A stretch of 40,482 nt of DNA from Escherichia phage vB_EcoP-22664UKE3-2. Shown in pieces: positions 1 through 40,482 of the stretch (positions are counted from its first letter, which is position 1; each line of letters starts with the position of its first letter). The DNA lies in sequence record MZ234011.1; one strand, given 5' to 3'. The notes beneath the pieces were generated by a model, which had not been told where the DNA came from, ran no database searches, and was given only the letters and a program-made list of their open reading frames with translations. The translations under genes and the position numbers were made by a program.

Positions 1-3000
1 ATGCAGGAACGAGAGGAGCGCTCTACGTGGTTCGGTTTCGGTGCGGCTACAGAAGCTGAAGTGAAGAACTCTATGGTCGGCGTGGCTATCCGCGCTGGTC
101 AGACCGAGGACTCACTTGATGTCATTGGCGATGTGTTCAACCCGACCCGCTGGAACAACCATAAGTGGTCTCGTGAGGAGCTAGACCAGATTCGTAACGC
201 TGGGGTTTTGCCTCAGTATTACGGAGTCATTACTGGTGGCTCTCCTCAGAACCTGACCGAGCTTATTAACTTGGCGCTTGAGAACCAGAAGTTGGACCAA
301 GAGAAGGCCAAGGCTGGGACTGGTGCTCAACTGGCGGCTGGTGTGATTGGTGCTGGCGTGGACCCTCTGACCTACGTTCCTATTGCTGGGCAGGTAGGTA
401 AAGGTGGTAAGCTAGTCAACAAGATGTTCACTGTGGCTGCTCAGTCTGGTGCTCTGGCTGGGGCATCCGAGATTGCTCGAACCTCAGTTGCTGGTGGGGA
501 CGCTCATGTTGCTGAAGCTATCCTTGGTGGCGCTCTCTTCGGTGGTGGCATGACTGCTATCGCTGATGGACTAGGCAGAGCCTTAGGTCGCAACACTAAT
601 GAGTTTGCTGGTCCAGCTACACGTTTGGAAGCTCGTGAGACAGCTCGTAACGTTGATGGTCAGGACCTGTCCCGTCTCCCTATTCAGGAAGGTGAGCAGA
701 CCTTTAGTCATCAAGGCGTTAAGTTCGCTGACGTTCCGAATGAGCCGGGAAGTGTACGATTAGAAGACGGTTCAATCCTGATTGGTGAGAACCCTCTGAA
801 CCCTAAGACACGTCAAGTCTTTGACGAAGTGATTGAGCCGGAACGTGCCGCTGCTGGTGTGAACCTTGGTGGACTTACCGAGATTGGCCTGAAGCTGCTT
901 CGGTCTGAGAACCCTGAGATTCGTGGAGTAGCTGCTGACTTAGTGCGTTCACCTACTGGTATGCAGTCTGGGGCCTCAGGTAAAATCGGGACAACTGCGT
1001 CAGACGTGTTCGAGAGACTTCGTTCTGTGGACCATCGGTTCTACAACGACATCGACGATGCGGTTACTGAGGCACTAAAGGACCCGTACTTCCAGACTGC
1101 ATTCTGGCGAGACTCTGGCGCATTCCGTCAGGACATCTACCAGCGTGTGTCTATGGCTATCGAAGATGGTAGCGGAAACCTGAAGGCTGAACTGACTCCG
1201 GGAGAACTGAAAGTCTATGACCTACTGAAGAACCAGTTCGACGCCAAGCGTGAGATGATGGAGAACCCAGCGATGTTTGGTCGTCCAGACGCTCAGTCTA
1301 TCTTTCCGGGTAGCCGCTTCAAGGGAACCTACGTCCCTCATGTGTATAGCAAACAGATGAAGGAGCTGTACATCAAGGAGCTTGGGAGTCCAGAGGCGTT
1401 GCAGGAGGCCATCAAGAAGTCATGGTTGACCAGCTATGCGTCTCGACCTGAAGTCAAGAAACGCGTGGACGAGGCACTTTTAGAGGCTGACCCTACGTTG
1501 ACTCCAGAAGGACTTGCGGCTGCGGTCGATAAGTACGCCAACGATAAGGCTTATGGTATCTCTCACACCGAGCAGTTCGAGCGTTCATCCGTAATGGAGG
1601 AGAACATCAACGGGCTGGTGGGTCTGGAGAACAACAGCTTCCTTGAGGCTCGTAACCTGTTCGATAGCGATATGTCAATCGTTCTTCCTAACGGTCAGAC
1701 CTTCAGTGTCAACAACCTGCGTGAGTGGGACATGGACAAGATTGTCCCGGCCTACAACCGTCGAGTTAATGGTGATATTGCTATCATGGCTGGTACAGGC
1801 AAGACCACGAAGGAAATGAAGGACTTAGTTGAGACCATGATGAACAAGGCTGGCGATGACGGAAAGTTGAAAGGTGAAGTATCTACCTTACGTGACACCC
1901 TGAAGATTCTCACTGGTCGTGCTCGACGTGATGGTGCTGATGATGCGGCCTTCGCTACCGTGATGCGCATGATGACAGACCTATCGTTCTTCGCTAAGAA
2001 TGCCTACATGGGTGTTCAGAACTTAACGGAGATTGGTGGTATGCTGGCTCGTGGTAACGTTCGTGCACTGCTACACGGAGTACCGATGTTCCGTGACCTA
2101 GCCTTCCGTAACAAGAAGGTCGGGGCCTCGGAGATTAAGGACCTGCATAATGTTATCTTCGGTAAAGAATTAGACGACTCAATCCGTCCGTCTAAACAGG
2201 ATGTTATCGACCGTCTGCGATCTTACAGTGACCTTAGTCGTGGTACAGCTACAGCTCTGGGGACTGCTAAGTATTACACTGGTGAACTTGTAGTACGCTC
2301 TCCGTTCACTAAAGTCCTCAACGGTACGACCAACTACCTGTTAGATGCTGGACGTCAAGGCTTCCTGTCTGACATAGTGGAGCATAGCCTGACTGGTAGT
2401 AAGCGTAAGTTCGATGACCGCTGGCTGAAGACCGCTGGTATATCTGACGAGCAGTGGAGTGGAATTAAGTCCCTAATCCGTGAGTCAGTGACTCGTGGGC
2501 CAGACGGGAAGTACACCATCAAGGATAAGAAGGCGTTCAGTCAGGACCCAAGGGCTATGGACCTGTGGCGTATGGGTGACACCATCGCTGACGAGACGTT
2601 ACTCCGGCCTCATAAGCTGTCAAACATGGACGCCAAGGCTTATGGTCCTCTCGCTAAGACTGTCCTTCAGTTTAAGAACTTCGTCATCAAGTCTATCAAT
2701 GGGAGAACCATGCGAACCTTCTATAACGCCACGAAGAACAACAGAGCGATTGACGCTGCACTGTCGACCGTGATGTCTATGGGTCTGGCTGGTATCTACT
2801 ACATGGCTCAGGCGCATGTCAAGGCTTATGCTATGCAGGATGGTCGAGACCGTGACTACCTTAAGCAAGCTCTGGACCCAACGATGATTGGCTATGCGGC
2901 CCTGTCCCGTAGTTCACATCTTGGTGGCCCACTTGGGGTAGCTAACATTCTGGGAGGCATCGCTGGATATGAGGACACTAAGATGCTCCGTTCGTCTATC

Positions 3001-3303
3001 CTACCTCGTTCTCCTACAGAGAAGCCTGAGCGTGCCATCGCGTATGGTGCAGCTACAAGTGACCCTGTGATGAATGTTGTTGGTAACTTCTTGGAGCAGG
3101 TTCCAGCTTTCGGATATGCTGCTAACGTTGGCGCTTCGGCTTACAACTTGGCTGGCTACCTCAAGGCTGATACTCGTGTCAACGAGCGTGACTACATGAC
3201 CGGGATGTATAATACGTTCCGTGAACTGGTTCCGAACGACCCCATTACCCAGAAGCTGCTGCTTGGAACGTTTGAGGAGCAAGGCATCCACATCAAGGAC
3301 TAA
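1..3303 (+). CDS. Internal virion protein D (T7 gp16), C-terminal 1100 aa; 5' part of the gene is at 39898..40482 (frame continuous across the window junction)
   Basis: Translation from base 1 (STWFGFGAATEAEV...TPTRWNNHKWSREELDQIR) aligns with an internal region of T7 gp16 as I recall it; combined length about 1295 aa matches gp16; position after gp15 and before the tail fibre. Confidence 0.9.
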   Translation: MQEREERSTWFGFGAATEAEVKNSMVGVAIRAGQTEDSLDVIGDVFNPTRWNNHKWSREELDQIRNAGVLPQYYGVITGGSPQNLTELINLALENQKLDQEKAKAGTGAQLAAGVIGAGVDPLTYVPIAGQVGKGGKLVNKMFTVAAQSGALAGASEIARTSVAGGDAHVAEAILGGALFGGGMTAIADGLGRALGRNTNEFAGPATRLEARETARNVDGQDLSRLPIQEGEQTFSHQGVKFADVPNEPGSVRLEDGSILIGENPLNPKTRQVFDEVIEPERAAAGVNLGGLTEIGLKLLRSENPEIRGVAADLVRSPTGMQSGASGKIGTTASDVFERLRSVDHRFYNDIDDAVTEALKDPYFQTAFWRDSGAFRQDIYQRVSMAIEDGSGNLKAELTPGELKVYDLLKNQFDAKREMMENPAMFGRPDAQSIFPGSRFKGTYVPHVYSKQMKELYIKELGSPEALQEAIKKSWLTSYASRPEVKKRVDEALLEADPTLTPEGLAAAVDKYANDKAYGISHTEQFERSSVMEENINGLVGLENNSFLEARNLFDSDMSIVLPNGQTFSVNNLREWDMDKIVPAYNRRVNGDIAIMAGTGKTTKEMKDLVETMMNKAGDDGKLKGEVSTLRDTLKILTGRARRDGADDAAFATVMRMMTDLSFFAKNAYMGVQNLTEIGGMLARGNVRALLHGVPMFRDLAFRNKKVGASEIKDLHNVIFGKELDDSIRPSKQDVIDRLRSYSDLSRGTATALGTAKYYTGELVVRSPFTKVLNGTTNYLLDAGRQGFLSDIVEHSLTGSKRKFDDRWLKTAGISDEQWSGIKSLIRESVTRGPDGKYTIKDKKAFSQDPRAMDLWRMGDTIADETLLRPHKLSNMDAKAYGPLAKTVLQFKNFVIKSINGRTMRTFYNATKNNRAIDAALSTVMSMGLAGIYYMAQAHVKAYAMQDGRDRDYLKQALDPTMIGYAALSRSSHLGGPLGVANILGGIAGYEDTKMLRSSILPRSPTEKPERAIAYGAATSDPVMNVVGNFLEQVPAFGYAANVGASAYNLAGYLKADTRVNERDYMTGMYNTFRELVPNDPITQKLLLGTFEEQGIHIKD

Positions 3304-3321
3304 ACTATCACTATAGGAAAC
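3299..3321 (+). promoter_or_regulatory. Phage RNAP promoter upstream of tail fibre gene (TAAACTATCACTATAGGAAA), predicted +1 near 3316
   Basis: Matches the window's recurrent 20-bp T7-type promoter core; overlaps the gp16 stop codon. Confidence 0.6.
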
Positions 3322-3367
3322 TGGAGGCGCTACCATAGGTCTCCATTTAAATCACAAAGGAGGCATA

Positions 3368-5899
3368 ATGTCCACGATTACACAATTCCCTTCAGGAAAC
3401 ACTCAGTACAGGATTGAGTTCGACTACCTAGCCAGAACGTTTGTTGTTGTTACGCTGGTGAATAGCTCTAACCCTACCCTGAACCGTGTACTGGAAGTTG
3501 GTCGAGATTACCGATTCCTTAATCCAACGATGATTGAGATGTTGGTTGACCAATCAGGTTTCGACATAGTTCGTATTCACCGTCAGACTGGAACTGACTT
3601 AGTGGTAGATTTCAGGAATGGCTCAGTGTTGACAGCTAGTGACCTGACCAATTCAGAGCTTCAGGCTATCCATATTGCAGAAGAAGGTCGAGACCAAACG
3701 GTTGACTTAGCGAAGGAATATGCCGATGCTGCTGGTAGCTCTGCTGGCAACGCTAAGGATAGCGAGGACGAAGCACGCCGAATCGCTGCGAGTATCAGGG
3801 AAGCTGGTCTAATTGGCTATATTACCCGTCGCTCCTTCGAGAAAGGCTACAACGTTACAACATGGAGCGAGGTCCTGCTATGGGAAGAGGATGGTGATTA
3901 TTACCGCTGGGATGGTACGCTTCCAAAGAACGTTCCTGCTGGTTCAACTCCTGAAACTTCCGGTGGGATTGGATTAGGTGCGTGGGTTAGTGTTGGTGAT
4001 GCTGCTTTAAGAAGTCAGATTTCAAACCCGGAAGGGGCAATACTCTACCCGGAATTGCAGATGGCAAGATGGCGTGATGAGGGTGATGTTCGAGGCTGGG
4101 GTGCTAAAGGGGATGGTGTAACAGATAGTACGGAGAATATAGCTGCTTCACTAAATTCTCAAAAAGCTGTCGTAGCATCAGAAGGTGTATTCTCTAGTTC
4201 TGGTATTAATAGTAATTACTGTAACTTAGACGGTAGAGGTAGTGGCGTGCTAAGTCACCGTTCCAGTACAGGTAACTACTTAGTATTTAACAATCCACGT
4301 ACAGGTCGCTTAAGTAATATTACGGTAGAAAGTAATAAGGCGACTGATACAACTCAGGGACATCAGGTATCTCTTGCCGGTGGAAGTGATGTTACTGTAA
4401 GTGACGTTAACTTCTCAAACGTTAAAGGTACTGGTTTCAGTTTAATCGCATACCCTAATGATGCGCCACCTGATGGACTTATGATTAAAGGCATTCGAGG
4501 TAGCTATTCCGGATATGCTACTAATAAGGTAGCAGGATGCGTACTTGCTGACTCATCAGTTAACTCCCTCATAGATAACGTCATTGCTAAGAACTACCCT
4601 CAGTTCGGAGCAGTAGAGTTGAAAGGTACAGCCCGTTACAACATAGTAAGTAATGTTATAGGGGCAGATTGCCAGCATGTAACTTACAACGGCACTGAAG
4701 GGCCAATAGCTCCTTCTAATAACCTTATCAAGGGGGTGATGGCTAATAACCCTAAGTATGCAGCGGTTGTTGCAGGCAAAGGAAGTACGAACTTAATCTC
4801 AGACGTGCTCGTAGATTACTCAACTTCTGATGCTAGGCAGGCTCATGGTGTTACCGTAGAAGGGTCTGATAACGTCATAAATAATGTGCTTATGTCAGGA
4901 TGTGATGCTACTAACTCTTTAGAACAAGGGCAGACTGCTACAATTGCACGCTTTATAGGTACAGCTAATAACAACTATGCGTCTGTATTTCCTAGCTACA
5001 GTGCTACAGGTGTTATTACTTTCGAATCCGGCTCTACCCGTAACTTCGTAGAGGTAAAGCACCCTGGAAGGAGGAACGACCTTCTCAGTTCTGCTAGTAC
5101 TATTGACGGTGCAGCTACTATTGACGGCACTAATAATAGTAACGTAGTGCACGCACCCGCCTTAGGGCAGTACATAGGTAGTATGTCAGGTAGGTTCGAA
5201 TGGCGGATTAAGTCCATGTCACTCCCTTCAGGCGTTCTTACTTCTGCTGATAAGTACAGAATGCTTGGGGATGGTGCTGTGTCATTAGCTGTAGGTGGTG
5301 GTGCATCTTCTCAAGTTCGACTATTTACTTCTGATGGTACTTCTCGGGGAGTATCACTCACCAACGGTAACGTGCGTCTTCCTACCAGTAGCACAGGTTA
5401 TTTGCAGTTAGGTTCTGATGCAATGACCCCAGATAGTACTAATACATACGCATTAGGTTCCGCAAGTAGAGCATGGTCTGGCGGTTTTACTCAATCAGCC
5501 TTCACTGTTGTCTCAGATGCTAGGGATAAAACAGAGCCTCTTAATATCTCAGATGCTTTACTGGATGCTTGGTCTGAAGTTGACTTTGTGCAGTTTCAGT
5601 ACTTGGACCGAATTGAGGAGAAGGGTGCAGACTCAGCTAGATGGCACTTCGGCATCATCGCTCAGCGAGCTAAGGAGGCCTTCGAACGTCACGGTATAGA
5701 TGCACATCGCTATGGCTTCCTGTGCTTCGACAATTGGGATGATGTATACGAGGAAGATGCCAATGGCTCTCGTAAACTGATTACACCAGCAGGTTCCCGC
5801 TACGGTATTCGTTACGAGGAAGTACTGATATTAGAGGCTGCGTTGATGCGGCGTACTATTAAGCGTATGCAGGAAGCATTAGCTGTTATGTCTAAGTGA
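3368..5899 (+). CDS. Tail fibre / tailspike (gp17-like): T7-type N-terminal adaptor + pectate-lyase-like beta-helix + C-terminal intramolecular chaperone (peptidase S74-like)
   Basis: N-terminal ~150 aa (YRIEFDYLARTFVVVTL...VDFRNGSVLTASDL...IHIAEEGRD) resembles the T7 gp17 N-domain; WGAKGDGVTDSTENIAA is a pectate-lyase-superfamily motif; C-terminus has SDARDK (Ser/Lys at i, i+5) followed by a chaperone-like domain; RBS AAGGAGG upstream. Confidence 0.85.
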   Translation: MSTITQFPSGNTQYRIEFDYLARTFVVVTLVNSSNPTLNRVLEVGRDYRFLNPTMIEMLVDQSGFDIVRIHRQTGTDLVVDFRNGSVLTASDLTNSELQAIHIAEEGRDQTVDLAKEYADAAGSSAGNAKDSEDEARRIAASIREAGLIGYITRRSFEKGYNVTTWSEVLLWEEDGDYYRWDGTLPKNVPAGSTPETSGGIGLGAWVSVGDAALRSQISNPEGAILYPELQMARWRDEGDVRGWGAKGDGVTDSTENIAASLNSQKAVVASEGVFSSSGINSNYCNLDGRGSGVLSHRSSTGNYLVFNNPRTGRLSNITVESNKATDTTQGHQVSLAGGSDVTVSDVNFSNVKGTGFSLIAYPNDAPPDGLMIKGIRGSYSGYATNKVAGCVLADSSVNSLIDNVIAKNYPQFGAVELKGTARYNIVSNVIGADCQHVTYNGTEGPIAPSNNLIKGVMANNPKYAAVVAGKGSTNLISDVLVDYSTSDARQAHGVTVEGSDNVINNVLMSGCDATNSLEQGQTATIARFIGTANNNYASVFPSYSATGVITFESGSTRNFVEVKHPGRRNDLLSSASTIDGAATIDGTNNSNVVHAPALGQYIGSMSGRFEWRIKSMSLPSGVLTSADKYRMLGDGAVSLAVGGGASSQVRLFTSDGTSRGVSLTNGNVRLPTSSTGYLQLGSDAMTPDSTNTYALGSASRAWSGGFTQSAFTVVSDARDKTEPLNISDALLDAWSEVDFVQFQYLDRIEEKGADSARWHFGIIAQRAKEAFERHGIDAHRYGFLCFDNWDDVYEEDANGSRKLITPAGSRYGIRYEEVLILEAALMRRTIKRMQEALAVMSK

Positions 5900-20577: not shown

Positions 20578-21068
20578 TGAGCAAGAAGTTTAAACTGTTA
20601 GTAGATGCGCATGGCTGGCCTAGTGGGACTATAGTTACCAAGTGTGAGAATGACCCCGTACCAGATTCAAGAATGACCCTAGTTGAGTGCCAGACTCCAG
20701 GCGCATACAAACATGGGTCTAACGGCTGCAATACTCAGCCTGAGGGTATGTGGGGAGCATGGGTCCTTAATTGGAAACTTGAGGAAATCAAGCCGGAAGA
20801 GAAACTCACTGGTGTCCAAACCACTCAAGTCCTGCCAGCTTCGAGCGTACCGCCTGTGACTTTGAAGCGTGAAATCCTGACCATCGACAAGATTGGTGTA
20901 GGCCAGACGTTCATCGTCCATGGAAAGCCTGAAGAAGTTTACGTGAAGATTAGCAACTCACACGTCTTCAACCATAAGCATCTCCAGATGCACACCACGG
21001 ACGCACAACGCTTCATCCAGCACCTGAATCTGGTTGTCGTAAAATTGGTGGTGTACAATGGTAAGTAA
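20574..21068 (+). CDS. Hypothetical protein (164 aa) between endonuclease I and lysozyme
   Basis: Start overlaps the gp3 stop; four Cys; T7 has no gene here. Confidence 0.55.
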   Translation: MMSKKFKLLVDAHGWPSGTIVTKCENDPVPDSRMTLVECQTPGAYKHGSNGCNTQPEGMWGAWVLNWKLEEIKPEEKLTGVQTTQVLPASSVPPVTLKREILTIDKIGVGQTFIVHGKPEEVYVKISNSHVFNHKHLQMHTTDAQRFIQHLNLVVVKLVVYNGK

Positions 21069-21516
21069 GGTACAGTTCAATCCACGGTCCCGGACCGACG
21101 CTATCTTCATTCACTGTTCGGCTACCAAGCCAGAGATGGACATCGGGGTAGAGACCATCCGTATGTGGCACAAGCAGCAAGGCTGGCTGGACGTAGGCTA
21201 CCACTTTATCATCAAGCGCGATGGTACTGTGGAAGAGGGACGCCCTGTCAATGTCGTAGGGTCACACGTTAAGGACTGGAACTCACGGTCTGTAGGCGTC
21301 TGCCTTGTAGGTGGAATTGACGCTAAGGGCAAGTTTGAAGCTAACTTCACTCCAGCCCAGATGAACTCCCTGCGCAACAAGCTGGCTGACCTGAAGGACT
21401 TGTATCCTCAGGCAGAAATCAAGGCTCACCACGATGTAGCACCAAAGGCTTGCCCAAGTTTCGACTTGCAGCGCTGGCTTAACACTAACGAACTGGTCAC
21501 TTCCGACCGAGGCTAA
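21058..21516 (+). CDS. Lysozyme / N-acetylmuramoyl-L-alanine amidase (T7 gp3.5-like)
   Basis: DAIFIHCSATKPEMDIGVETIRMWHKQQGWLDVGYHFIIKRDGTVEEGR...HHDVAPKACPSFDLQRWLNTNELVTSDRG is near-identical in motif structure to T7 lysozyme. Confidence 0.95.
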   Translation: MVSKVQFNPRSRTDAIFIHCSATKPEMDIGVETIRMWHKQQGWLDVGYHFIIKRDGTVEEGRPVNVVGSHVKDWNSRSVGVCLVGGIDAKGKFEANFTPAQMNSLRNKLADLKDLYPQAEIKAHHDVAPKACPSFDLQRWLNTNELVTSDRG

Positions 21517-37181: not shown

Positions 37182-39464
37182 ATGGCTAGTAATATTGAAT
37201 CAGCTCTGGCTAATCGGACTATGGGTCGTGGCAGGGCTCCGGGTAAAACTATCGCCGTCAACTATCAAGCAGCCAGCGTTCAGGCTCCAACTGGTGACTC
37301 AGGTCTTGCTCGGGCGTTAACCAACTTCGTTGAGTCTGGTACTGGATTATACAAGCAGTTCAAAGACGAGGAGAAGACACGGGCCGACGAGCGGTCTAAC
37401 GAGATTATCCGTAAGCTGACACCTCAGCAAAGACGTGAGGCTATCCAGAACGGTACATTGCTGTATCAGGATGACCCTTACGCTATGGAAGCACTTCGAG
37501 TCAAGACGGGCCGTAACGCTGCCTTTGCGGTTGATGACGAGATTAACGTTAAGATTCAGAACGGTGAGTTCCGTACACGTCAGGACATGGAAGAGTATCG
37601 CCACCAGAGACTTCAGGACGCCGCTAAGTCCTATGCTGAAGAGGCGGGTATTAACCCTACCGACGAGTTCTTCCAGCGCGGGTTCAACGATAACATCACA
37701 GACCGAAACATCGCTATCTATGGGTCTTTCAATAAGTATTTCAGCAAGCAGTCTGAAGAGACAGCAATGTTGAACACTCGTATTGAGATGAACTCGTTCC
37801 TTAACGATGGGGACCTGATGCGTTCGCCTGAGTCTGGAAAGACCTTCATGGCCTACCTTCGGGATGGACTGACGACTGCTGCTATCCCTTCTGACCAGCG
37901 AGCACGAGAGGTAATCACCCAGACGGTCCGTGACGCAATCCAGAAGTCAGGAGGCTCAAGCTTCCTACAGCAAGTCCGTGGCGAGCGTATCACCCTTAAC
38001 GGTATTGATGCTACCATCGAAGAGATTGTAGGCCCTGACGTCTTCAATGCTGCTGTGGTTGAGGCTCAAGGTACCGAGTACAAGTTGGTGGCTAAGTATC
38101 AGGAAGACTTATCGTTAGGCGTTCAGTCTGCGATTCTTCAGGACGACCCAACCATCGGTCTGGCCCAGATTCAGAAACTCAAGGAGCAGAACAACCTGCT
38201 TCAGCCGGGGGAAGAACTCACGCCTCAGCGTCAGATGCTTATTAATGCCGAAGCCAGCTTACTGGAAGCGGTCAAGCGTAAGTCTGCTGAACAGGCGAAG
38301 GAGAACACTAAGTTAATCCAGACTCAGAACAAGCAACTGGTCATCGACCAAGTGTATCAGCGACGTCTGGCTGGGGACAACGTGTCCACCAACTATGAGG
38401 ACCTTCCGGTCTCTGAAGCTACAGGAGAGTTCAAGCGTTCAGACATGAACAACTATGCGTCTGCAAAGCTACAGCAGATTGACCAGATGGACATCCCTGA
38501 GGCTGCTAAGGACGCTCAGAAGGTGGCATTGTTAAGAGCTGACACTAACAACGGTCCGTTCCGTAATGCATTCCAGACGCTTACTCAGGACGCTGCTGGT
38601 GAGTGGCAAGCTGCGGTCATCCGTGGACAGTACGACCCAGACAAGATGCAACGCTTCGAGTCTCTTCGTCGTGCCTACACTCAGGACCCTTCAAGTTTTG
38701 CTGCTCTGTATCCTGACCAAGCTCAGTTGTTCTCTACGTTCGACCAGATGGACAAGATGGGTCTGGACCCTCAGACGATGATTGAAGCTGATAAGCAAGC
38801 TGCAAGTCAAAGCCGTGAGATGCGCATGGAGTCAGACAAGGCGTGGCAGGAGCTGAAGAACGACTCCAAGAACACCCAGTTGTCTCGCCTCCCAACGTCT
38901 CTGGACTCAAGTGCTCGTAAGGTATGGGACTCATGGTACTACCGTACAGGTAACGCTGATGCTGCAACTCAGCAGACTCAACGATGGCTGAATGAAAATA
39001 CCGTAACGTTCCAGTCTGAAGGTTCTGACGGTAAGTCCATCGGCATGGTGTCAAAGCACCAGCTTATGGTCGGGGATAACCCAGAGTCGTGGCAGGTTGG
39101 TCGAGACATTATCGACACCGCTCGTAAGCAGCTCATTAAGGCCAACCCTTGGGTAGTGAACTCTCAGTTGTCCGTTGTTGAACAGAACGGCTCTATCTTC
39201 CTCCAAGACGCTACAGGGACTATTCGTATTCGCTACGATAAAGAACTTGTAGGTAAACTCTACCGCGAACAACAGCAGAAGGCACAAGATGCCGCATACG
39301 CTCAGGCAGAACGTGACGCTAACAAGCGAGCGCGTATCGTCAGGACTAAAACTGCTGGTGACAAACGTCGAGCTGACCGAGAGGCCAACATCGAGAAGCG
39401 CGGAGGGATGTACAATGACGTCTCATTGGAGGGTATCGCAAACGTACTAATCGGTAAGGAGTAA
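37182..39464 (+). CDS. Internal virion protein C (T7 gp15-like)
   Basis: 760-aa ORF at the gp15 position and size; RBS AGAGGAGG upstream. Confidence 0.9.
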   Translation: MASNIESALANRTMGRGRAPGKTIAVNYQAASVQAPTGDSGLARALTNFVESGTGLYKQFKDEEKTRADERSNEIIRKLTPQQRREAIQNGTLLYQDDPYAMEALRVKTGRNAAFAVDDEINVKIQNGEFRTRQDMEEYRHQRLQDAAKSYAEEAGINPTDEFFQRGFNDNITDRNIAIYGSFNKYFSKQSEETAMLNTRIEMNSFLNDGDLMRSPESGKTFMAYLRDGLTTAAIPSDQRAREVITQTVRDAIQKSGGSSFLQQVRGERITLNGIDATIEEIVGPDVFNAAVVEAQGTEYKLVAKYQEDLSLGVQSAILQDDPTIGLAQIQKLKEQNNLLQPGEELTPQRQMLINAEASLLEAVKRKSAEQAKENTKLIQTQNKQLVIDQVYQRRLAGDNVSTNYEDLPVSEATGEFKRSDMNNYASAKLQQIDQMDIPEAAKDAQKVALLRADTNNGPFRNAFQTLTQDAAGEWQAAVIRGQYDPDKMQRFESLRRAYTQDPSSFAALYPDQAQLFSTFDQMDKMGLDPQTMIEADKQAASQSREMRMESDKAWQELKNDSKNTQLSRLPTSLDSSARKVWDSWYYRTGNADAATQQTQRWLNENTVTFQSEGSDGKSIGMVSKHQLMVGDNPESWQVGRDIIDTARKQLIKANPWVVNSQLSVVEQNGSIFLQDATGTIRIRYDKELVGKLYREQQQKAQDAAYAQAERDANKRARIVRTKTAGDKRRADREANIEKRGGMYNDVSLEGIANVLIGKE

Positions 39465-39466
39465 AC

Positions 39467-39916
39467 ATGAAGAACGGGACAGCCAGTGAGAGACTGGCAG
39501 AACTGTCAGTAGCTGAAGAGTCTGGCTGTATCCGATTCACAGGCCACTTAGACGGAGAAGGATACGGAAGGATAATGGTGGCTAGGGTTAAGTATATGGC
39601 ACATCGTCTCTCCTACTCCATAAATAAGGGGCCAATACCAGATGGCTATGTTGTTAGGCATAAATGTGATAATCCATCATGCATAAATCCTGAACACCTT
39701 GAAGTAGGAACGCAGGCTGACAACATTGCAGATAAGGTATCCAGAGGCCGACAGGCAAGAGGTAGTGGAGCAGGCAGAGCTATACTGACAGAGGAATCTG
39801 TTAGGGAAATACGCTCCAGTCCATTAAAAGTATCTGAGCTTTCCACCTTATACGGGGTAAGCGTCGTTTCCATACGAAATATATTGAGGAGAAAGACATG
39901 GCAACACGTGGCGTAA
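39467..39916 (+). CDS. HNH homing endonuclease inserted between gp15 and gp16
   Basis: GCIRFTGHLDGEGYGRIMVARVKYMAHRLSYSINKGPIPDGYVVRHKCDNPSCINPEHLEVGTQADN is a classical HNH motif; overlaps the gp16 start by 19 nt. Confidence 0.8.
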   Translation: MKNGTASERLAELSVAEESGCIRFTGHLDGEGYGRIMVARVKYMAHRLSYSINKGPIPDGYVVRHKCDNPSCINPEHLEVGTQADNIADKVSRGRQARGSGAGRAILTEESVREIRSSPLKVSELSTLYGVSVVSIRNILRRKTWQHVA

Positions 39917-40482
39917 GGAACGCAAATCCGGGCAATATCCGTAAGTCCAAAGACCAGTGGGAAGGTGCTATAGGCGATGATGGTGCATTCGTTATCTTCG
40001 ACAGTCCTGAATCTGGGGTCCGAGCATTAGCGAAAAACCTTCAAAGCTACGGTCGCCAAGGTTATGACTCTATCGAGAAGATTATCAACAGATGGGCACC
40101 TCCGAGCGAGAACGACACTCAGTCCTACATCGACTCGGTTGTATCTGCTACTGGTATTCCTGCAACTCAAAGTCTCGACCTATCTGACCCTGACACCCTG
40201 TCTTCTCTGGCACAAGCTATCAGCTTCCATGAGACAGGCTCACGGTACGACCCTGAAGTCTATCAGAAGGGAGTCGCACGGGCACTCAACGGCATTAGCC
40301 CAAAGACTCCACCAGTAAGCGCTAACGTATTTGACGCACTCACGGAAGGACTCAAGTCTAAACCTAAAGTAGCTCTGGGTGAGAACCTTCCGACCGCTGC
40401 TGGTCTTAACATTGAGGGTCAAGCACCTGAAGCTCCCAACGAATCGTTCGGTGAGATGTTCTATAAGTCTACTGGCGAGACC
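39898..40482 (+). CDS. Internal virion protein D (gp16), N-terminal 195 aa; continues in frame at window position 1
   Basis: ORF runs off the window end with no stop; its last residues (...FGEMFYKSTGET) and the first residues of the window (MQEREERSTWFGF...) are contiguous relative to T7 gp16 (...WETHGETLDEYNSRSTFFGF). Confidence 0.85.
   Translation, partial: MATRGVRNANPGNIRKSKDQWEGAIGDDGAFVIFDSPESGVRALAKNLQSYGRQGYDSIEKIINRWAPPSENDTQSYIDSVVSATGIPATQSLDLSDPDTLSSLAQAISFHETGSRYDPEVYQKGVARALNGISPKTPPVSANVFDALTEGLKSKPKVALGENLPTAAGLNIEGQAPEAPNESFGEMFYKSTGET

Follow-up and report, generated by a model that had tools for sequence, protein, structure and literature searches.

Gp16 of phage T7 is a protein of the internal core stack that is ejected at infection and places its enzyme domain in the periplasm on the gp15 tunnel, where it opens the peptidoglycan locally, while its tape binds gp15 and its C-terminal body spans the inner membrane (PMC8954989). 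Residues 1-156 of T7 gp16 constitute the transglycosylase (LT) domain and residues 157-228 a 'molecular tape' that cements gp15 (PMC8954989). Under standard conditions T7 can do without the LT activity, which matters only for highly cross-linked peptidoglycan (Moak & Molineux 2000, via PMC8954989). Moreover, it has already been described that muralytic modules are swapped and relocated among the ejection proteins of podoviruses (PMC8954989).

A very different setting for a phage muralytic enzyme is provided by ORF39 of Hafnia phage Enc34 (PDB 7Q47), which was placed in family PHA02564 by its authors (PMC8943055) and which is a lysis-cassette endolysin with a C-terminal two-helix membrane anchor; M4Lys of Salmonella phage BSPM4 is a further member of the family. 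E. coli, P. aeruginosa and H. alvei cells with a permeabilised outer membrane are lysed by the catalytic domain of ORF39, whose all-helical fold is related to the lysozyme alpha-lobe by circular permutation and whose residues Glu131, Trp79 and Tyr95 superimpose on catalytic residues of GH73 and GH23 enzymes (PMC8943055). A catalytic role has been proposed for Glu131 and a GH73-like N-acetylglucosaminidase mechanism for the enzyme as a whole; the paper is silent on gp16 and on internal virion proteins (PMC8943055).

Here we describe gp16 of Escherichia phage vB_EcoP-22664UKE3-2 from its sequence record MZ234011.1, the whole 40,482-nt stretch of which is the window of this analysis. Judged by sequence, the record is a Kayfunavirus genome (K1F-like, Autographiviridae, Studiervirinae), as the region analysed shares 98% nucleotide identity with Kayfunavirus PDP21P1 and 80-97% with many K1F-like phages. 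In the relatives CR44b, SH5 and PRF-SP4, which are classified in Autographiviridae, Studiervirinae, Kayfunavirus, the gene is named 16, internal virion protein D. Our results make it likely that Kayfunavirus gp16 carries an Enc34-type endolysin module in place of the T7 SLT domain and that, within the ejectosome, this module would act as the peptidoglycan glycosidase carried by the virion, probably with GH73-like chemistry.

The gp16 reading frame reaches the end of the sequence at position 40482 after 195 codons, and frame 1 from position 1 adds a further 1100 codons up to a stop codon at 3301-3303. The gene and its parts are as follows.

39898..40482, plus strand: 5' part of gene 16, codons 1-195 (internal virion protein D, ejectosome protein), with ATG at 39898 and GAGGAG at 39886-39891; residues 1-195 match chain 9vvp_L (Gp29) with E=2e-116.
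1..3303, plus strand: remainder of gene 16, codons 196-1295 and the stop codon, encoding the T7-like body, as indicated by the in-frame continuation and by BLASTP against T7 gp16.
39898..40290, plus strand: predicted Enc34 ORF39-type (PHA02564-family) muralytic domain, residues 1 to ~131, at the position of the T7 SLT domain (phmmer, Foldseek).
40270..40482, continuing at position 1, plus strand: start of the T7-homologous part, an extended linker of residues 125-195 corresponding to the gp15-binding 'molecular tape' of T7 (BLASTP; PMC8954989).

The joined protein of 1295 amino acids is free of internal stops and aligns in one ungapped stretch, 1-1295, with PDB chain 9vvp_L, that is Gp29 of phage E1004, which likewise has 1295 amino acids; the join of position 40482 to position 1 is therefore real. 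Thus, the record is a circularly permuted genome with its break inside gene 16. Gp29 is contained in the structure 'Core proteins of the bacteriophage E1004' (9VVP, released 2025-11-12), and as a near-identical orthologue, whose N-terminal domain differs by few substitutions and which shows no substantive difference from the protein described here, it is a solved-structure representative of the same protein. One might object that the 195-residue end piece is a product of assembly or of the limits of the window rather than the true N-terminus of gp16, as its reading frame extends past the end of the sequence and as several GenBank records that share this permutation point leave the same piece unannotated. 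The chance of this is negligible: the joined frame equals 9vvp_L in length and alignment, and intact orthologous genes of 1295-1299 codons with the same N-terminus are annotated in CR44b, SH5 and PRF-SP4, so that an assembly artefact is excluded by the intact orthologues together with 9VVP. Examples of records cut at the same codon in gene 16 are MZ234009, MZ234021, MZ234022 and MZ234024; records cut in this way either leave the N-terminal enzyme domain without annotation or begin the gene at position 1, under the name of a truncated 'lytic exotransglycosylase'.

The gene order is also of the T7 type. A 760-aa ORF (37182-39464), in the position of gp15 in the relatives, is followed by an HNH insert, by gp16 (39898 to 3303 across the ends) and by an 843-aa ORF (3368-5899), and the CR44b annotation gives the same gp14-gp15-gp16-gp17 type of order. 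As in T7 (7EYB, 7K5C, 6YT5), gene 16 thus lies between gp15 and the tail fibre or spike gene, and in both phages the encoded protein starts with a cell-wall enzyme module.

It is in the nature of this module that the two proteins differ. A sequence-only reading of the DNA had claimed that the N-terminus of gp16 lacks a T7-type SLT signature, and Pfam, hhalign and BLASTP bear this out; the three peptide strings that it quoted from this region are all found in the translation. That this reading could describe gp16 past residue 195 is accounted for by the join of the two sequence ends. At E<=1, Pfam returned zero matches in the first 195 residues as well as in the full 1295-aa gp16, whereas residues 1-235 of T7 gp16, included as a positive control, matched PF01464 SLT with 7.4e-31. 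Hence the profile search for a standard SLT domain with its catalytic Glu, which had been set in advance as the test for refutation, was negative. Furthermore, hhalign of a 120-sequence profile of the N-terminal domain against residues 1-156 of T7 gp16 gave a probability of 0.1%, and tblastn with residues 1-230 of T7 gp16 found no match anywhere in the 40,482-nt genome.

BLASTP of the full gp16 against T7 gp16 gave one co-linear alignment, which extends from residues 125 to 1295 (152-1315 of T7) with 53% identity, starts at K125 and includes the gp15-binding tape; nothing similar was found N-terminal of residue 125. Co-linearity with T7 had been placed from residue ~200 onward and the first 195 residues had been held to be unlike T7. 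The former start has to be moved to residue 125, and the latter holds for residues 1 to ~124-131 and fails for residues 125-195, where 31% identity to T7 152-220 is seen (E=3e-7; alignment block 125-198). In agreement with this, a PDB sequence search matched the T7 gp16 structures 7eyb, 7k5c and 6yt5 to residues 125-1294 only. Since T7 homology resumes at residue 125, the non-T7 part comprises residues 1 to ~124-131 and not all 195. Residue 125 corresponds to T7 residue 152, near the end of the LT domain and the start of the tape, and so the junction lies exactly at the domain boundary, where identity to T7 falls abruptly to background.

What then occupies the first ~131 residues? The sequence-only reading had suggested a swap to a different peptidoglycan-hydrolase module, and this suggestion is supported by phmmer, by Foldseek and by the conservation of the Enc34 catalytic residues, although for a segment of ~125-131 residues rather than 195. 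Phmmer matched residues 3-122 to 7q47_A, the catalytic domain of Enc34 ORF39, with E=3.9e-13, and pairwise identity of the two domains is 40% across 133 aligned positions. A homologue search with the N-terminal domain recovered only small stand-alone proteins (86-234 aa) and no gp16, and these were used for the alignment. An AF2 model computed with the 120-sequence alignment reached a pLDDT of 93.8 and shows a compact domain that ends near residue 131; it supersedes an AlphaFold run from the single sequence of 195 residues (pLDDT 41). In Foldseek this model matches 7Q47 with a TM of 0.84 and has the same helical core fold and topology. Outside the Enc34 family its nearest fold neighbours are GH73 glucosaminidases (FlgJ 5DN5, TM0633 4QDN and C. 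difficile Ecd09610 8YXK), and not GH23 structures, as would be expected of an SLT domain. The Kayfunavirus domain is shorter than that of Enc34 and lacks several of the Enc34 loop insertions. Its membership in PHA02564 we infer from its homology to Enc34 ORF39; Pfam and NCBIfam leave the domain unmatched, and PHROGs distributes it among seven families whose names disagree ('endolysin', 'head protein', 'tape measure', 'tail injection transglycosylase').

Pairwise alignment with Enc34 ORF39 places the three residues implicated in catalysis as follows. Residue numbers in PMC8943055 equal the genomic number minus 1, and this offset was applied in the mapping.

40093..40095, plus strand: Trp66 (TGG), corresponding to Enc34 Trp79, putative substrate-positioning aromatic residue.
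40126..40128, plus strand: Tyr77 (TAC), corresponding to Enc34 Tyr95.
40231..40233, plus strand: Glu112 (GAG), predicted catalytic glutamate in the motif FHETGS, corresponding to Enc34 Glu131.

Across the 120 homologues Tyr77 and Glu112 never vary and Trp66 is retained in at least 90%; four Kayfunavirus representatives, epsilon15 gp15 and Enc34 have all three residues. The gp16 domain of Providencia phage PSTRCR_120 retains the Glu and the Tyr and has Leu instead of Trp66, from which it follows that the complete Trp/Tyr/Glu triad is not absolutely required for retention of the domain.

Could the N-terminal domain nevertheless be a T7-type SLT (GH23) domain that was inherited vertically and has diverged to the extreme, with no swap having occurred? 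Its place in the protein and its presumed role are the same as in T7, and the authors of the Enc34 study argue for very distant common ancestry of their enzyme with GH23 and GH73 (PMC8943055). However, a Pfam SLT match that is absent at E<=1 where T7 scores 7e-31, and the hhalign probability given above, are hard to reconcile with such descent. The only invariant Glu of the domain is E112 on the penultimate helix (H98-113), whereas the catalytic E37 of T7 is located on the first core helix, and the helix order is permuted as in Enc34. Extreme divergence confined to this domain would also have to be squared with the 53% identity of the remainder of gp16 and its abrupt loss at the domain boundary, and with the 40-52% identity of the domain to proteins of unrelated phages (Enc34, epsilon15, D3112-like). 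We regard this explanation as scarcely credible, and a hyper-diverged SLT as excluded for practical purposes. It is with the Enc34-type module as the preferred assignment that two further alternatives have to be considered, both of which concern what the module does. One is that it is enzymatically inactive and persists solely as a structural 'wing' on the periplasmic tunnel or core stack, as might be argued from the dispensability of the T7 activity under standard conditions (PMC8954989) and from W66L in the Providencia phage homologue. The conservation of E112, Y77 and W66 in the homologues, the invariance of all three in the Kayfunavirus representatives examined, and the maintenance of the domain at 80-99% identity across about 216 records speak against this, and we consider it very unlikely.

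More room, though still on the improbable side, is left for the second, namely that the enzyme is active but cleaves another bond, be it as an endopeptidase, a bifunctional enzyme, a muramidase or a lytic transglycosylase. HPLC of M4Lys digests suggested products of both glucosaminidase and endopeptidase activity (cited in PMC8943055), and public records name the protein 'lytic exotransglycosylase'. Then again, the nearest folds outside the family are those of GH73 glucosaminidases, the Enc34 authors saw no structural basis for an endopeptidase activity (PMC8943055), and the 'exotransglycosylase' labels come without an SLT signature and were probably transferred from T7-type gp16. The activity, bond specificity and entry role that we assign to the gp16 domain are inferred ones, the activity being extrapolated from free-standing endolysins with which it shares 37-40% identity.

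By analogy with T7, gp16 of the present phage would travel in the core stack of the virion and, at infection, pass through the tail into the cell envelope. The presence of gp16 in the virion of relatives is documented by mass spectrometry for CR44b (record note) and for SH3 and SH4 (PMC4925675), and by the 9VVP core structure. The Enc34-type domain would then be positioned in the periplasm outside the gp15 tunnel, where it would cut the peptidoglycan locally, while the tape segment would bind gp15 and the C-terminal body would cross the inner membrane. According to this model the enzyme cassette ahead of the tape has been exactly replaced, with tape and body remaining T7-like from residue ~125. 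Glu112 on the penultimate helix would act as the catalytic residue, assisted by Trp66 and Tyr77, and the chemistry would be a GH73-like N-acetylglucosaminidase hydrolysis and not lytic transglycosylation. Being part of a 1295-aa virion core and ejection protein rather than an anchored endolysin, the module would act from the outside at entry, unlike its Enc34 counterpart. As the LT activity of T7 is dispensable in standard conditions, the contribution of the domain to infection may be conditional here as well. Lysis at the end of the cycle, finally, would be brought about by a separate enzyme and not by the gp16 domain.

21061-21513, plus strand: T7 gp3.5-type N-acetylmuramoyl-L-alanine amidase, 69% identical to the T7 protein and presumed to be the endolysin of the phage, separate from the gp16 enzyme domain.

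How widespread is this arrangement? In a tblastn search the N-terminal domain was found in 771 phage records, 216 of which match at >=80% identity (80-99%) and, as far as checked, are Kayfunavirus. The gp16 body was found in 1278 records (221 at >=80% identity, two at 60-80% and 1055 below 60%) and the T7-type SLT N-terminal domain in 1223. The counts for body and N-terminal domain together indicate that the Enc34-type domain tracks one well-separated clade. Of the T7-like gp16 genes in the collection searched, roughly one in six would belong to this clade, most of the others apparently carrying SLT, and on the same comparisons the N-domain swap is seen to be genus-wide in Kayfunavirus. The domain has a GC content of 51.1% and the genome one of 49.8%, so that a recent transfer is not indicated by base composition.

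The remaining matches are scattered over chivirus-type endolysins, including that of Enc34, the 'head protein' gp15 of epsilon15, D3112/JBD-type transposable Pseudomonas phages ('structural protein P5'), autolykivirus-like Vibrio phages of 13-14 kb and microviruses of 5-6 kb ('P5-like structural protein'). Proteus phage RS51pmB was considered as a further carrier of the domain in gp16 and rejected, as the domain resides there in a small protein adjoining a holin, which is an endolysin context. Escherichia phage HEMP4, which is unannotated, contains a copy of the domain with 56% identity. Epsilon15 gp15 resembles the gp16 described here in that a domain of the same type (48-52% identity, triad conserved) is part of a large internal virion protein of a podovirus. 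It differs in that the domain lies inside the chain, near residue 246 of 842, and in that the protein is otherwise unrelated to T7 gp16. The record note for epsilon15 gp15 (2263-4791) cites an HHpred match to SLT, and this protein may therefore carry two different muralytic modules.

A gp16 of 1292 amino acids is encoded by Providencia phage PSTRCR_120 (MW358928.1, 3995-7873), a member of Studiervirinae with no genus assigned. Its body is 29% identical to that of the present phage and 31% to that of T7, and its N-terminal domain is 41% identical to that of the present phage. An Enc34-type domain on such a distant body implies either repeated acquisition of the cassette or its long presence in part of the subfamily. 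A bolder reading would be that the gp16 enzyme of Studiervirinae is an exchangeable cassette that recombines exactly at the boundary of domain and tape, and that the Kayfunaviruses and, independently or ancestrally, the Providencia lineage use a GH73-like N-acetylglucosaminidase rather than an LT and hence a different entry chemistry. In this full form we think it doubtful and give it only a small chance of being correct. If it were true, no 1,6-anhydro-muropeptides would be formed and a free MurNAc C6-OH would not be needed, and these phages could get through peptidoglycan in states, or in the presence of inhibitors, that stop T7-type LT domains. A sporadic HNH gene just upstream might promote co-conversion of the cassette. 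The sequence-only reading had suggested that the swap may be relevant to cell-wall penetration in a different host; Kayfunavirus hosts are ordinary enterobacteria including E. coli, which is also the host of T7.

Neither the enzyme family nor the host protein nor the phage genus is new, a near-identical protein is in the PDB, and to a specialist the finding will be unsurprising, as the swapping of muralytic modules in podovirus ejection proteins has been described before. The general picture of mosaic ejection proteins is unchanged by it. What is gained is a concrete enzyme assignment for Kayfunavirus gp16, with E112 as the predicted catalytic residue, and the correction of a systematic annotation error; domain scans of these gp16 proteins return nothing. 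Public records label Kayfunavirus gp16 inconsistently, often as 'lytic exotransglycosylase'; a 2025 survey lists 1295-aa Kayfunavirus proteins without a recognised domain beside SLT-bearing gp16, and a published endolysin survey includes truncated versions of 1102-1106 aa. With this assignment the Enc34/M4Lys enzyme family would comprise, beyond endolysins, entry enzymes in the virions of T7-like phages as well. T7 and K1F-type gp16, moreover, form a natural pair with the same scaffold and different enzymes (GH23 SLT, PF01464, with E37 in the one and an Enc34-type domain, unrelated by sequence, in the other), which could be used to probe the contribution of the periplasmic enzyme to the ejectosome, and the 131-aa domain by itself is a small candidate module for an enzybiotic. 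The K1F genome paper of 2005 by Scholl and Merril may reportedly already comment on the N-terminus of gp16. In the literature covered by our search there was no statement of an Enc34-type domain in Kayfunavirus gp16, and no paper on PDB 9VVP or on phage E1004.

The HNH gene between gp15 (37182-39464) and gp16 deserves a separate remark. It occupies positions 39467-39916 on the plus strand, encodes a homing endonuclease of 149 amino acids (Pfam HNH_3, 1.2e-13), overlaps the start of gp16 by 19 nt and contains the gp16 ribosome-binding site. Its GC content is 46.4% as compared to 49.8% for the genome. Its occurrence in relatives is sporadic: only 16 of 198 matching records cover >=80% of a 1083-nt query, many cover 58-68%, and in SH5 and PRF-SP4 gp16 directly follows gp15 with no HNH gene between them. 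The region including gp15, the HNH gene and gp16 also shares 83.5% DNA identity with GenBank record MT350292.1, 'Enterococcus phage EFA-1', whose host label, E. faecalis, looks doubtful for a T7-like enterobacterial phage.
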